Part shown: positions 40,681-52,146 of the stretch, in pieces
How the letters are laid out: the number at the start of each line of letters is the position of its first letter
How positions within the stretch are numbered: position 1 is the stretch's first letter
Origin: an uncultured delta proteobacterium
GTDB taxonomy: Bacteria; Desulfobacterota; Binatia; Binatales; Binataceae
Length of the DNA stretch: 64,000 nt
Reading direction: 5' to 3'
Assembly: GCA_963765675.1 (NCBI GenBank)
Contig: CAVXXK010000006.1
Span: 128,001 to 192,000, forward strand
Program-made: the position numbers and the translations under genes
Notes under the pieces: model-generated
What the model saw: the letters and a program-made list of their open reading frames with translations, nothing else
Database searches by the model: none
What the model was told of the DNA's origin: nothing

Positions 40681-42447
40681 CTACTCGGGCGGCGAATCTT
40701 CGTCGTCTTCGTCGGGCGCCACCACTTCGTCGACAACGCGTGAGTGCTCGAACATTCCGGCGCCCTCGCGATCGCCCGCGCGAAATTTCGCAAAGCCGAG
40801 CGTGGTAAAGATTCGGCTATGGTCGGGTCCGGGGCGTGAGAGCGGTACGAACGCGCAGACCGCGCCTTCGAGCGCGATCGCCTCATGACGCCATTGTCCG
40901 CGCGCGGAAATCTTGCTCGGCGCTTCCTCGGGCGACGGAGTTTCGATTTCGAGCGCAGCCAGCTCGCCGTCGGCCCATCCTTCGGCGCCGAGGAAAATCG
41001 CCTTGCGATGAAGCTCGGAGGAGTCGTCGCTGACGGTGCGGAGCTCGATCGCACAGGGCGCGCGTCCGTCCTCGAAACACGCCCACAGCATCCGACGCTC
41101 GCGAAATTTCTGCGGACCGAGTCCGGTGAACGAGAGCCCGGCGCGAGCGACGGCGCGCAGCGCGGTCGCTTCGCCATCGATTTCGACGCTGCCGGTCATC
41201 TCCGCGAACGAAGAAATCGAGTCCGCTGAACGCGGCGCGCCGCTGCCGCCAAAAATCGCCGACGGGTCGAAGCCGTTATCGGGCAGGCGCATCCGAAGAT
41301 CCACGCGCGCTGCCGGATCGAGCCGGCCCGAGGCGAGCGCGCGCTCGATACTCAAGTACGCCGAGCCGTCGGGCACGATAACGATTGGACCGGAAAATCT
41401 TAAGAGCAGCTCGCGTCCTTCGACTGCGAGCGTGAGCGGTCCGAGCGAGAGTCCGTCGCCCGCGAGCTTGACGCGGCCCTCGCAGGTGCAGAGCGCGACG
41501 CGGCGTTCCTTCGACAGGAACATGATTCGCGCGCCGAAGCCGCCGCTCAGATCGAAGCTCGCCATCGCGCCGAGACCGGCGCGCGGATCGAAGAACTCGA
41601 CGCCGACTCGCGTCGGTATCGACGGCGCTGCCACGCGCGCGGGGGCGACAGGGCGCGGCATCGGCTCGCGCACGATCTTGAGCCGCGAGCCAGACCGCGA
41701 CGGTTCCGCTGAGCGCGGACCGAACGCCGATTCGAGCGCGTCGATGCATCGGTCACGCAGCCGCCCGGGCATCCTGACAGCGACGGAGAGCTCGAGCTGC
41801 GCGGCGTCGACCTGGGCGCTTTCGGAAAGTGCCGCGATCGTTCTGAGCGCGGCGACCGTGCTCTGGCGATGACGCTCGGTGAAGGCCTGCACCAGGTTGT
41901 GCAGCGCGCCCGCCGGGTAGCGCATCCCGAAAGTCGGGGTGACGCCGCTTTCGCGCAGCCGCGCCGCGAAGTCCATCAACGGCCCGCGGATAAACTCGTC
42001 GCTGGCCGAGACGCGCGCCTGTCCAGTGGGGCGCAGCTCTCCGCCGATCGTCCTGACGCCCAATCCCAGGTCGACGCGCGGCTCGATAATGTTCCATCCG
42101 TGGATCATCAGCACGATCGCGTGGCCGTGGCGCTCGACGATACTGCTCACGCGCTCGGCGATCATCTCGAGGATCCACGGCGCGTGCTCGGCGAGTTGGG
42201 TCAGGCGATTGCAATCGAGCTGGTTGCGATCCATCCCGAAGTTGATCAGCGCCGCCGCGCCGAGGCGCCGCGCGAGTTCGCGCGCGATGTCCGCGGTATG
42301 AAGATCGTTGACCTTGGGATGCAGCGTCGCGCGCGAGGCGGCGCCGGCGCGGCCGCCATGCGGTGCGATCAGCAGAATCGGAGAATCAGCCTCGATGGTT
42401 TGCAGCCAGGTGCCCGCCGCTTCGAGGCCGACCGCCGCGCCGCTCAT
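40681..42447 (-). CDS. Two-domain protein: N-formylglutamate amidohydrolase-like N-terminus plus unknown beta-rich C-terminus
   Basis: PILLIAPHGG..ND.HT..IA..LA..DRNQLDCNR..LMIHGW..QLEL; ATG overlaps the pcs stop (ATGA). Confidence 0.6.
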   Translation of the reverse strand: MSGAAVGLEAAGTWLQTIEADSPILLIAPHGGRAGAASRATLHPKVNDLHTADIARELARRLGAAALINFGMDRNQLDCNRLTQLAEHAPWILEMIAERVSSIVERHGHAIVLMIHGWNIIEPRVDLGLGVRTIGGELRPTGQARVSASDEFIRGPLMDFAARLRESGVTPTFGMRYPAGALHNLVQAFTERHRQSTVAALRTIAALSESAQVDAAQLELSVAVRMPGRLRDRCIDALESAFGPRSAEPSRSGSRLKIVREPMPRPVAPARVAAPSIPTRVGVEFFDPRAGLGAMASFDLSGGFGARIMFLSKERRVALCTCEGRVKLAGDGLSLGPLTLAVEGRELLLRFSGPIVIVPDGSAYLSIERALASGRLDPAARVDLRMRLPDNGFDPSAIFGGSGAPRSADSISSFAEMTGSVEIDGEATALRAVARAGLSFTGLGPQKFRERRMLWACFEDGRAPCAIELRTVSDDSSELHRKAIFLGAEGWADGELAALEIETPSPEEAPSKISARGQWRHEAIALEGAVCAFVPLSRPGPDHSRIFTTLGFAKFRAGDREGAGMFEHSRVVDEVVAPDEDDEDSPPE

Positions 42448-43196
42448 GACGCCGCGACTCGCGCGCTGCGCGCATGCAGGATGAACGACGCGGCGAAATA
42501 ATACACGATAAAACTGAGTGAGACTCCGAGCATGATCGGATTTACGATCGGCAGCATCGGGAGCATCGCGAAGGTCACTACCGCCCACACGATTCCATAC
42601 GCGAGCGTCACTGGCCGCAGCGGAACCGTGCGGCTCGGATAGATATATCTGATCGGCACGAACACCATCACCGCGAAAATTATCAGGATTGCCCAGTTGA
42701 TCACGCTCGGCCAGTGGAGGCAGTAGAGATAGAACGCGACGATATTCCAGTAGTTCGGAAAGCCGAGAAAATAATGATCATCGGTCTTCGCGTCGGTCTG
42801 GCAGAAGCCGTACACGCTTGCCAGCATGATGAAGCACGCGAGCACGAGGCCCGGAATCGACTTGGGAATGATGCCCGCTTCGAGCATCAGGAACACGGCG
42901 GCGACGGTGTAGGTCAGGTAGTCGACGATATTGTCGAGCAGCGAGCCGTCGAACGAAGGCACGCGATGCTTGACATCGACCCACCTGGCGAGGGCTCCGT
43001 CGCTCGAGTCGATAAAGATCGCGATTCCGATCGCGACGAACGACATCGGAAAGTTTTGCTCCGCCGCGTAGTAGATCGCGAGCAATCCCGCCGCCGCGCC
43101 GAGCGCGGTGTACAGATGTACGGCCCAGGCGCAGGCCAGCAGAATACGCTGGCGCGGCAATGGTCCGGAGATGGTTCCCGCCGCGCTGGTCATCAC
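42444..43196 (-). CDS. pcs: Phosphatidylcholine synthase (CDP-alcohol phosphatidyltransferase family)
   Basis: AWAVHLYTALG, DSSDGALAR..DGSLLDNIVDYLTY, KTDDHYFLGFPNYWNIV, FVPIRYIYP; these are Pcs-type signatures. Confidence 0.85.
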   Translation of the reverse strand: MMTSAAGTISGPLPRQRILLACAWAVHLYTALGAAAGLLAIYYAAEQNFPMSFVAIGIAIFIDSSDGALARWVDVKHRVPSFDGSLLDNIVDYLTYTVAAVFLMLEAGIIPKSIPGLVLACFIMLASVYGFCQTDAKTDDHYFLGFPNYWNIVAFYLYCLHWPSVINWAILIIFAVMVFVPIRYIYPSRTVPLRPVTLAYGIVWAVVTFAMLPMLPIVNPIMLGVSLSFIVYYFAASFILHARSARVAAS

Positions 43197-43214
43197 ATTC
43201 TCACTTAAGCATCG

Positions 43215-50714: not shown

Positions 50715-51489
50715 CGATGATCTCCCCGGAAGCTGCCAGCGCGCGATCGCCCTCAGTTGCGGCGGCGGAGTCGCGGGATTTGTCGAAGGTGATAATCGGC
50801 CAATTGCGCCCGAGCGCTGCAGCGCGCAGCTTGCGATCGGGATTGACGGCTACCGGATGCCCCAGCGCGGCGAGAAACGGCAGATCGTAGTAGGAATCCG
50901 CGTAGCCCCAGCACCTGTCGAGCGAGATATCGCGCGTGGCCGCGAACTCCGCACACCACGCGGCTTTCTCTTCCGCCGCCATCACGGGCGCCGCGATACG
51001 CCCAGTTGCGCGTCCCCGCGACATCACCAGGCGATTGGCGGCGACGTGATTGACCCCAAGATGGCGCGCGAGTGGCTCGGCGATAAAGTCGGGTGAGCCG
51101 GTGACGAGGACCGGTTCGAGTCCGAAATCACGGTTGGCGCTCAAAATCTCGACCGCGCGCGGATAGAGATTCCTGAGCAGCACGCGCTCGCAGTATTCCT
51201 CGCCGAGCGAGAACAGCCGGTCGGACGAGACGCCTTGAAATGATTCGAACAGAACCTGATTAAGCAATCTGCGATCCTTGCGCTCGGCCAGATAAAGGCG
51301 CGGCGCTCGCGCGGCGAACGAGAGCAGGTATCCGGCGCGCCCGGACCATTCGCCCAGGTTGGCCAGGATGAAAAGTGCGGAGTGGACGAGATTGAGCGCG
51401 CACAGGGTGCCGTCGAGGTCATAGAAGGCCACGCCGGCCTGAGGTTTTTTCCGCGGCAAGCGAGCTTCCTTTTGCGCTAAAACTGACAT
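50701..51489 (-). CDS. HAD-IB family hydrolase/phosphatase
   Basis: FYDLDGTL, LVTGS, EEKA, GYADSYYDLPFL..GHPVAVNPD. Confidence 0.9.
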   Translation of the reverse strand: MSVLAQKEARLPRKKPQAGVAFYDLDGTLCALNLVHSALFILANLGEWSGRAGYLLSFAARAPRLYLAERKDRRLLNQVLFESFQGVSSDRLFSLGEEYCERVLLRNLYPRAVEILSANRDFGLEPVLVTGSPDFIAEPLARHLGVNHVAANRLVMSRGRATGRIAAPVMAAEEKAAWCAEFAATRDISLDRCWGYADSYYDLPFLAALGHPVAVNPDRKLRAAALGRNWPIITFDKSRDSAAATEGDRALAASGEIIDGAS

Positions 51490-51495
51490 GTCATT

Positions 51496-52146
51496 CTAGT
51501 TCCGGGCAAATAAAAAGCGCGGCTCCGGGTCGCCATTGCCAGCCCGTGCAGCGGCTTCCAGAAGCTCGGGCCGCGCTACGCCGCGCAAGCCAAAATCCAG
51601 GATCTCCTCGACCAGCGCGGAAGTGTCAGATTTAGGTGTGCGCGAGAGCAGACTGACGACTTCCTTGATCGCACCCAGGATGCAATACGCGATCGCGCGC
51701 GTGTCGGATTTGCGCACCAGGTTCATCTCGATTCCCAAATCCAGCGAGCGCTGGATCAGCATCGCGATCCGGTCGTAGAACTCGCGGATACGCTGGTCGA
51801 GCTCGCGATCGAATCCCACCGAATGGTTGAGCAGGATATCGGTCAGCTCGCGCTCCTCGAGGACGTACTCGACCACGCGACGCAGATTGTCGCGAAGCTG
51901 CTCGACGGGATCAGGCTGGTCCGCGCCGACGCGCAGCCGCAGGATTCGGGTGGTCAGCTCGGTCAGCACCTGCTCGAGCAACTCCTCGAACAAGTCTTTC
52001 TTGTTTTGGAAATAGAGATAGAAGGTGCCACGCGCGATTCGCGCGCGCGCGATAATATCGGCGACGTTAGTCCGATGATATCCCTTGCGGGCGAATATCC
52101 GTTTTGCATGGCGCAACACCTGCGCGCGCCGAGCCTGCTTTTCCAT
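51496..52146 (-). CDS. TetR/AcrR family transcriptional regulator
   Basis: FARKGYHRTNVADII..ARGTFYLYFQNKKDLF HTH. Confidence 0.93.
   Translation of the reverse strand: MEKQARRAQVLRHAKRIFARKGYHRTNVADIIARARIARGTFYLYFQNKKDLFEELLEQVLTELTTRILRLRVGADQPDPVEQLRDNLRRVVEYVLEERELTDILLNHSVGFDRELDQRIREFYDRIAMLIQRSLDLGIEMNLVRKSDTRAIAYCILGAIKEVVSLLSRTPKSDTSALVEEILDFGLRGVARPELLEAAARAGNGDPEPRFLFARN

Follow-up and report, generated by a model that had tools for sequence, protein, structure and literature searches.

Positions 40681-52146 of a 64,000-nucleotide stretch of bacterial DNA (hereafter the window; GenBank assembly GCA_963765675.1, contig CAVXXK010000006.1, positions 128,001 to 192,000) carry eight co-oriented genes, which we are inclined to read as one lipid operon joining the elb core, known from Myxococcus xanthus, to a head-group module of the phosphatidylcholine synthase (Pcs) type. 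The source is a metagenome-assembled genome (MAG) of an uncultured soil bacterium of Candidatus Binataceae (4.5 Mb, 16 contigs, 95.6% complete). On balance, we regard the arrangement as a membrane-lipid operon that is near-universal in Binataceae and was made from two joined units. Ether-linked phosphatidylcholine (ether-PC) is a plausible product, which we propose only tentatively.

All eight open reading frames (ORFs) lie on the minus strand. Beginning with the first gene, they encode a FadR-like TetR-family regulator (51496-52146), a HAD-IB phosphatase-type hydrolase (50701-51489), a LarA homolog (49074-50714), an ElbD-like megaenzyme of 1467 amino acids (44653-49056), a predicted secreted, Zn-dependent phospholipase-C-like (PLC-like) phosphoesterase (43811-44656), a dual-specificity-type phosphatase (DSP; 43215-43748), a Pcs-family CDP-alcohol phosphatidyltransferase (42444-43196) and a two-domain protein of 588 amino acids (40681-42447; hereafter the fusion). 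The frames of the PLC-like gene and the fusion reach up to 45004 and 42588; if translation begins at GTG 44656 and ATG 42447, starts that are backed by the aligned N-termini of 12 homologs each, the junctions between the genes measure 6, -14, 17, -4, 62, 18 and -4 nt. A scan for promoter-like and terminator-like sites placed none inside an intergenic gap of the operon. The coordinates and starts bear out the original prediction made from the sequence of the window, which had described eight co-oriented genes with these junctions; its statement that no stand-alone NAD epimerase gene lies within the operon also proved correct. The predicted non-myxobacterial lineage is confirmed by the homologs of the Pcs-like and fusion proteins, which are named Candidatus Binataceae or Candidatus Binatus in their sources, and the titles of 80 related loci read Binataceae or Binatus or bear older labels such as 'Deltaproteobacteria bacterium'.

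An important question is whether such an arrangement could have come about by chance. We compared 80 species-level Binataceae loci, which overlap with the loci of 20 relatives examined separately and thus form no second, independent set; as the genomes themselves share ancestry, the counts make the loci look more independent than they are, and one locus comes from an unpublished genome (G010). A scan of genome contigs with ElbD returned Binataceae loci only. Upstream counts refer to loci with at least 3.4 kb of upstream flank (n = 68) and downstream counts to those with at least 5 kb behind ElbD (n = 56). The TetR, HAD and LarA-like genes stand directly upstream of ElbD in all 68, and the DSP, Pcs and fusion genes stand directly behind it in 46 of the 56, 32 without and 14 with the PLC-like gene, an adjacency that persists down to 58% ElbD identity. 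The remaining loci comprise one with DSP and fusion, two with the three genes 4-9 kb away, one with the PLC-like gene only, one with the fusion only, on the other strand, and five with none. Recurring over 80 species-level loci, the arrangement at 40681-52146 is far from chance. The linkage to elbD in related genomes that had been predicted for the pcs, DSP and PLC genes therefore holds for DSP-Pcs-fusion but for PLC in only 14 of 46 cases, which marks PLC as an accessory that some genera carry, the window's included. Median identities over the Binataceae loci are 84% for the LarA-like protein, 70% for ElbD, 66% for Pcs and 54% for the fusion.

The elb core and the LarA homolog at the elbC position

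The megaenzyme has the domain order that had been predicted for an ElbD: NAD_binding_4 at residues 36-360 (fatty acyl reductase, FAR), AMP-binding at 560-949 with AMP-binding_C at 1000-1082 (acyl-AMP ligase), PP-binding at 1115-1176 (carrier protein) and Acyltransferase at 1234-1359 (of the AGPAT or glycerolphosphate type), all from Pfam. The motifs TGxTGFLG, YxxxK, TSGTTGxPKG, DSL, NHxSHxD and FPEGTR, which we take to be the catalytic motifs of its four domains, are invariant in 8/8 aligned homologs. An elbB-like gene and a gene at the elbC position stand ahead of it, as in the M. xanthus operon. The former, an elbB equivalent by position and family, is the HAD-IB gene (TIGR01490, 116.6 bits against a cut-off of 98.3); elbB itself has been described as HAD-like, and elbD is needed for alkyl ether lipids in M. 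xanthus (PMC9131029; this and the other publications below are represented by the parts of their text that were accessible).

Does the same core exist outside the family? Metagenome contigs were scanned with a 50%-identical LarA-like representative (P0247), whose cluster contains a protein from a Myxococcales MAG, and the 72 loci with a LarA-like gene less than 70% identical to the window's made up the non-Binataceae set. Where the contigs gave room, 44 of 53 loci have the HAD gene immediately ahead of the LarA-like gene, and 19 of 33 have a full-length ElbD with all four domains immediately behind it (18 by script, plus L142, where the genes overlap by 4 nt); ElbD is split or partial in four more, and ten have none downstream. 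An NAD epimerase follows ElbD in 9 of the 10 loci examined, while tblastn matches to the PLC-like, DSP, Pcs and fusion proteins were found in 0/72 loci. The published order of the M. xanthus operon is elbB (HAD), elbC (unknown function), elbD and elbE (NAD epimerase) (PMC9131029, PMC13012113). Because the metagenome order of HAD, LarA-like, ElbD and NAD epimerase genes matches it, the LarA-like gene is, judged by gene order, the elbC-position gene. Since the module is found in none of the 72 non-Binataceae loci, Binataceae have, as far as these sequences tell, swapped elbE for the head-group module and put a TetR gene in front. Compared through published descriptions of its genes, M. xanthus elbABCDE (MXAN_1531-1527; MIBiG BGC0000871) thus shares with the window the ElbD domain order and the HAD (elbB) and elbC-position genes ahead of it, whereas the window is without elbA and elbE, has an added TetR and holds (PLC)-DSP-Pcs-fusion in the elbE slot.

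The protein at the elbC position carries Lar_N and matches NF052592 (LarAH14/15/16) with 833 bits against a cut-off of 740, over positions 2-520 of the 520-position profile. Its closest solved structures are the cryo-EM models 9q2u and 9q3j (E 2e-28), LarA homologs that bind the nickel-pincer nucleotide (NPN) without a second catalytic histidine, which LarAH groups 14 and 15 likewise lack (PMC12611868). In a HMMER alignment, H144, K219 and H235 fall on His115, Lys195 and His211 of LarA_Sp, the positions of the first catalytic histidine, the NPN-tether lysine and the Ni-ligand histidine, respectively; V212 occupies the place of the second catalytic histidine, so that the pair of bases of a two-base racemase is missing. 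This H144/V212/K219/H235 pattern is kept in 71/72 Binataceae and 80/80 metagenome homologs. To judge from these residues, the elbC-position gene encodes an NPN-type LarA homolog with one catalytic histidine. The first catalytic histidine, the tether lysine and the Ni-ligand histidine are shared with LarA_Sp and LarA_Bw (9q2u, 9q3j; PMC12611868), but these have Asn at the second-histidine position and lie beside glycolytic genes, whereas the window protein has Val and belongs to a putative lipid operon.

The LarA-like gene is the sole Lar_N gene of the genome and the most conserved gene of the cluster. The larB, larC and larE genes score above cut-off elsewhere in the genome, unlinked to the cluster, and larC is present in 37/41 relatives, including ten sister-family genomes (G025, G026, G029, G030, G031, G033, G034, G036, G037 and G038) and G004 of family f1 that have no Lar_N gene at all. 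Since larC occurs in such genomes, we dropped the idea that the NPN pathway exists solely for the elbC gene; the data suggest a further client for the cofactor in this class, and another NPN-using family has been published (PMC13524815). In family f1, 22/24 relatives have full-length ElbD together with Lar_N, and the remaining two, G004 and G016, have neither. Sampling of 401 genomes of the phylum turned up full-length ElbD in no family other than f1 (4/5 f1 genomes, G000 counted).

Several variants of ElbD and its partners were seen in passing. Nine genomes elsewhere in the phylum (G063, G090, G103, G190, G198, G305, G332, G399 and G404) encode ligase-carrier-acyltransferase proteins of 880-1020 amino acids without the reductase domain, with 32-37% identity to ElbD residues ~550-1420. 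Four metagenome loci (L167, L191, L181 and L166) have ElbD divided, with its reductase and its ligase encoded by separate genes upstream of the HAD and LarA-like genes, which resembles the split variants reported for Poribacteria and Acidobacteria. The ElbD matches in G022:C16 and G024:C12 each contain one in-frame TGA, owing perhaps to an error in sequencing, to decay into a pseudogene or to recoding. At a Myxococcales-type locus (L141, 9726-11051), the ElbE-like epimerase has an N-terminal collagen-like repeat (Pfam Collagen, 1.4e-7).

Proteins of the proposed head-group module

The Pcs-family protein (CDP-OH_P_transf) is a candidate phosphatidylcholine synthase. Its five best NCBIfam matches are all Pcs models, each covered at full length with 133-191 bits (E 1e-38 to 3e-56), and the next family, PssA, follows far behind (7.5e-9). 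The motif D..DG..AR-x12-G...D...D occurs in the window protein and in 55/55 homologs; we take the 12-residue spacer within the CDP-alcohol motif (DGx2ARx12Gx3Dx3D) to be a mark of Pcs. The genome encodes seven CDP-OH transferases, of which the operon gene is the only Pcs-like one. The predicted coupling of Pcs to ElbD stands insofar as a Pcs-family gene with the 12-residue spacer lies co-oriented downstream in most Binataceae, but the module proved to be separable from ElbD, as set out below.

In every Binataceae locus where both were seen, unlinked copies included, Pcs and the fusion are adjacent, and of the 557 proteins in the fusion family, all that carry an organism name come from Binataceae or Binatus. 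More distant relatives of the fusion, 30-39% identical, are present in 6/9 sister-family genomes, where they are never adjacent to Pcs. The structural model of the fusion (predicted local distance difference test, pLDDT, 82.7; predicted template modelling score, pTM, 0.84) has two domains, at residues ~1-245 and ~280-575. The closest Foldseek matches of the N-terminal domain are 2odf and 2q7s (FGase) and 3a9l and 5onj (PghP, YndL), with template modelling (TM) scores of 0.51-0.57 normalised to the targets. The prediction of an amidohydrolase fusion is thus sustained at the level of fold (2q7s, 2odf) but not by the sequence model, as the match to PF05013 (FGase) stays below threshold (E=0.014, 16 bits against 28.9). 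The C-terminal domain, in which DUF7064 is the sole Pfam match, is an AttH/CrtC-like double barrel, a fold also of fungal Diels-Alderases; its Foldseek matches include 2ich (AttH), 9fzn (25-phosphosteroid lyase), Fsa2, Phm7 and kievitone hydratase. From these models, the fusion, an FGase/PghP-like hydrolase joined to an AttH/CrtC-like barrel, probably acts on a lipid substrate.

The DSP is a Cys-X5-Arg phosphatase without a signal peptide (DSPc, 54.8 bits), with the loop HCNAGMNR and the HCx5R signature in 57/57 homologs. Among proteins of solved structure, those closest to it in sequence are LSF2 (3e-17) and SEX4, glucan phosphatases of plants that act on non-protein substrates. The PLC-like protein scores just below the Pfam gathering scores of Zn_dep_PLPC (26.0 against 26.8) and S1-P1 nuclease (27.6 against 29.5). 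Its hydrophobic N-terminus ends in ...ASA/W, and the predicted signal peptide stops before W23, which would leave this Trp as the first residue of the mature protein. Nine residues (W23, H28, D63, H78, H147, D151, H157, H172 and E176), presumably ligands of a trinuclear zinc site, are invariant in 13/13 sequences. The AlphaFold model (pLDDT 90.1), which has the all-helical fold of this superfamily, is closer in Foldseek to phospholipases C (TM 0.74-0.76 for B. cereus PC-PLC and 0.79-0.81 for the Listeria enzyme) than to S1/P1 nucleases (0.52-0.64), and a profile search of sequences in the Protein Data Bank (PDB) agrees weakly with this order (0.006 against 0.67).

Insertions of ~1.3-1.9 kb were seen at two loci of this region, between PLC and ElbD in G013 (L037, 2534-5356) and between DSP and PLC in G018 (L041, 4779-6125), where the DSP match is in two pieces. 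In G014, the PLC-like gene and DSP-Pcs-fusion lie ~8.6 kb apart.

Proposed pathway and competing explanations

We infer the enzymatic steps, the co-transcription and the product of the operon as follows. The first unit (elbB, elbC and elbD) would, by analogy with M. xanthus, produce the 1-O-alkyl backbone of a glycerolipid, with ElbD activating, carrying, reducing and transferring a fatty chain, the NPN enzyme contributing hidden redox chemistry at a secondary alcohol and the HAD protein taking off a phosphate. The second unit, in the elbE slot, consists of the DSP, the Pcs-family transferase and the fusion, joined in some genera by the secreted Zn-PLC-like protein, and would set or recycle a choline-type polar head group. 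Because a FadR-like TetR gene heads the operon, both units may answer to one lipid-derived signal, which would link them to acyl-CoA status. Entry of the alkyl-acyl backbone into the CDP-activated pool would lead to ether-PC: once activated by CdsA, the backbone could be converted by the Pcs-type enzyme into plasmanyl (alkyl, not vinyl) phosphatidylcholine (PC) beside diacyl-PC. Alkyl rather than vinyl ethers would be expected because no match for CarF/PEDS1 was found in the genome, a weak negative, as the control genomes gave none either. Among bacteria, Mycoplasma fermentans is known from chemical work to contain 1-O-alkyl-2-acyl-glycerophosphocholine (PMC3403081).

A number of observations weigh against one operon with such a product. 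The head-group unit is not within 10 kb of ElbD in 5/56 loci and is displaced or partial in five more. Three genomes of three genera (G020, G017 and G015) keep TetR-HAD-LarA-ElbD with Pcs-fusion on other contigs, accompanied by DSP in G020; DSP was not detected beside the pair in G017 and G015. In G239 (98% complete, family f1; L235, G239:C15:80000-96000), TetR-DSP-Pcs-fusion occupies the same locus between the same flanks without elbBCD, in the order PNPOx-like gene, TetR, a gap of ~1 kb, DSP, Pcs and fusion; its congener G349 has HAD-LarA-ElbD, and G239 looks like a clean loss or a non-acquisition of elbBCD. A Pcs-like gene of 43-47% identity is present in 9/9 sampled genomes of sister families in the same class, and full-length ElbD was found in 0/9 of them. 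The Pcs matches of the window protein all fall below the cut-offs of 300-440 bits of these lineage-specific models. A search for choline uptake genes of the BCCT and OpuAC types, in which the control genomes were positive, found none in the 95.6%-complete genome. There is no clear ElbE in the genome, where the best SDR match (29-38% identity) lies in a hopanoid cluster, and M. xanthus has less ether lipid when elbE is inactivated (PMC9131029). Terminator-like (n = 8) and promoter-like (n = 2) sites are not commoner than in shuffled sequences. The DSP-Pcs-fusion module is thus separable from elbBCD, and Pcs is older than the joining of the units. Because Pcs-like genes occur in nine of nine sister-family genomes without full-length ElbD, Pcs is a general trait of the class and not dedicated to ether lipids. 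The ether-PC originally predicted as product remains plausible, tempered by this distribution and by the missing BCCT and OpuAC genes.

These data raise the question of whether two pathways simply share a locus and a regulator. The ethers made by elbBCD would then take ordinary head groups, DSP-Pcs-fusion, as the system that serves PC or head-group synthesis in this lineage generally, would act mainly on diacyl CDP-diacylglycerol (CDP-DAG), and ether-PC would be an incidental by-product of pool mixing. We consider this possible, though less than probable: it accords with the Pcs-like genes of the sister families, with G239 and with the three unlinked modules, and, because Psd adjoins a CDP-OH transferase in the genome, a phosphatidylethanolamine (PE) route exists that could serve ether backbones. 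It sits poorly with the direct adjacency in 46/56 loci down to 58% ElbD identity, the position of the module exactly in the elbE slot and the short or overlapping junctions. A different head group would explain the choline-uptake result in another way. The Pcs-type enzyme would work without imported choline, while DSP and fusion would make or finish another or an endogenous alcohol head group, for instance by a phosphatidyl-X-phosphate route like that of PgsA and phosphatidylglycerophosphate (PGP) phosphatase, giving a Binataceae-specific phospholipid and not PC. Besides the missing BCCT and OpuAC genes, the sub-threshold scores against all five equivalog models, the constant Pcs-fusion adjacency in Binataceae, the non-protein phospho-substrates of the closest solved relatives of DSP and the likeness of the fusion barrel to lipid hydratases and lyases speak for it. 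We nevertheless find it unlikely, as the 12-residue spacer and the full-length matches to five Pcs models favour Pcs proper, in G017 and G015 no DSP was detected next to the Pcs-fusion pair, and the search for choline uptake covered only the BCCT and OpuAC types. Least probable, in our estimation, is that the megaenzyme makes fatty aldehydes or alcohols, wax esters or ordinary acyl lipids, and that the cluster serves lipid storage or remodelling. The missing elbE would fit such a role, and the reductase and acyltransferase activities of ElbD have never been shown in vitro, even in M. xanthus, according to the accessible text of PMC9131029; yet the full elbB-elbC-elbD triad is kept with all its motifs, and the sole genetic evidence on this architecture there points to alkyl ether lipids. 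We therefore keep to the single operon of two joined units as the preferred reading.

Could the elbC-position enzyme itself take part in forming the ether bond? According to the accessible text of PMC9131029, the route of ether-bond formation in the ElbD pathway is still unknown. Because it is of the single-histidine NPN type, is the most conserved protein of the cluster and travels with elbB and elbD across distant lineages, the elbC-position enzyme is a concrete, testable candidate for the missing step. In a speculative version, to which we assign little probability, it would be non-racemising and would transiently abstract a hydride at C2 of an acyl-glycerol-phosphate to give a bound keto intermediate, the fatty alcohol supplied by ElbD would take the place of the acyl group, and the hydride would be returned; elbE would then be dispensable in Binataceae, its slot having been taken by DSP-Pcs-fusion, which would channel the alkyl backbone to a choline-type phospholipid and yield plasmanyl-PC without choline import by any known transporter. 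If this holds, the reaction would be a counterpart of AGPS and alkyl-dihydroxyacetone phosphate (alkyl-DHAP) reductase that is redox-neutral and works without flavin. The eukaryotic and myxobacterial FAR-GNPAT-AGPS route to alkyl-DHAP shares with the pathway proposed for the window the requirement for redox chemistry at C2, for a fatty alcohol as donor and for a triose or glycerol phosphate that carries an acyl group, whereas the core in the window holds an NPN-type LarA homolog.

The original prediction had also held the extended arrangement to be undescribed. This must be narrowed, as elb-like clusters beside CDP-alcohol phosphatidyltransferases have been reported in sponge symbionts (Loureiro et al., mSystems 2022, PMC9426513; bioRxiv 2026, 10.64898/2026.06.23.733905), with non-myxobacterial elbD genes and variable neighbours. 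In the preprint, clades 1 and 2 lie beside CDP-alcohol phosphatidyltransferases, glycerol-3-phosphate (G3P) acyltransferases and diacylglycerol (DAG) kinases, and clade 3 beside a phosphatase. These clusters belong to Acidobacteriota and Poribacteria, and the accessible text names no Pcs-type enzyme, DSP, FGase/AttH fusion or Binatota. In the literature searched, we found no link of Binatota to ether lipids, ElbD or PC, and elbC together with elbD only in PMC9131029, as a protein of unknown function in its accessible text. Relative to the accessible text of the preprint, the new parts seem to be the identity of elbC and the Pcs-fusion pairing. With the bacterial Pcs pathway, which uses CDP-DAG and free choline, the window shares the CDP-alcohol transferase family, the five Pcs models and the spacer-12 motif; it differs in the scores below cut-off, in the canonical choline uptake genes (BCCT, OpuAC) that were not found, and in the pairing of Pcs with a fusion whose close full-length relatives are Binataceae-only. 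The Binataceae variant, with elbE dropped, a Pcs-type module added and one TetR, is a natural experiment on which genes suffice, and the fusion constantly paired with Pcs in it is an uncharacterised protein. The operon is also a starting point in the search for ether-linked choline lipids in a soil lineage that is abundant and uncultured, and such lipids bear on the interpretation of environmental ether-lipid biomarkers.

Regulator, neighbouring genes and a hopanoid-type cluster

The regulator (TetR_N and TetR_C_24) has as its best NCBIfam match the Bacillus-type FadR (E=1e-18, residues 8-190), below the cut-off. In contrast to its constant place in Binataceae, a TetR match was found in just 1/72 non-Binataceae loci (L181), weak and non-adjacent. 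Divergent from it, a PNPOx-like flavin-binding protein is encoded on the plus strand (52218-52835; PNPOx_N, 5e-14) across a spacer of 71 nt, in which a search for an operator found no inverted repeat. Many Binataceae loci (11/17 in one set) have the same gene ahead of TetR and on the other strand, and so does the G239 locus without elbBCD. Because this divergent position is kept so often, the gene may be a member of the TetR regulon, its membership in the system being uncertain. At the other end, an Mrp/NUBPL-type P-loop ATPase gene (39748-40656, plus strand; ParA/NUBPL, 1.5e-42) converges on the operon. It accompanies the Pcs-fusion pair in other genomes, including two of the three unlinked copies (G020, G017) and G239, and is probably outside the system.

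One consistent ElbE-like match in the genome was considered and rejected as ElbE because it belongs to a hopanoid cluster; with hopanoid and squalene genes on either side, it is probably HpnA. This hopanoid-type cluster (L221, G000:C4:277001-291000) encodes a squalene-hopene cyclase, Dxr, two squalene/phytoene synthase paralogs, an amine-oxidase-type flavoprotein, the HpnA-like NAD epimerase, a Caroten_synth-family protein and YdjC.

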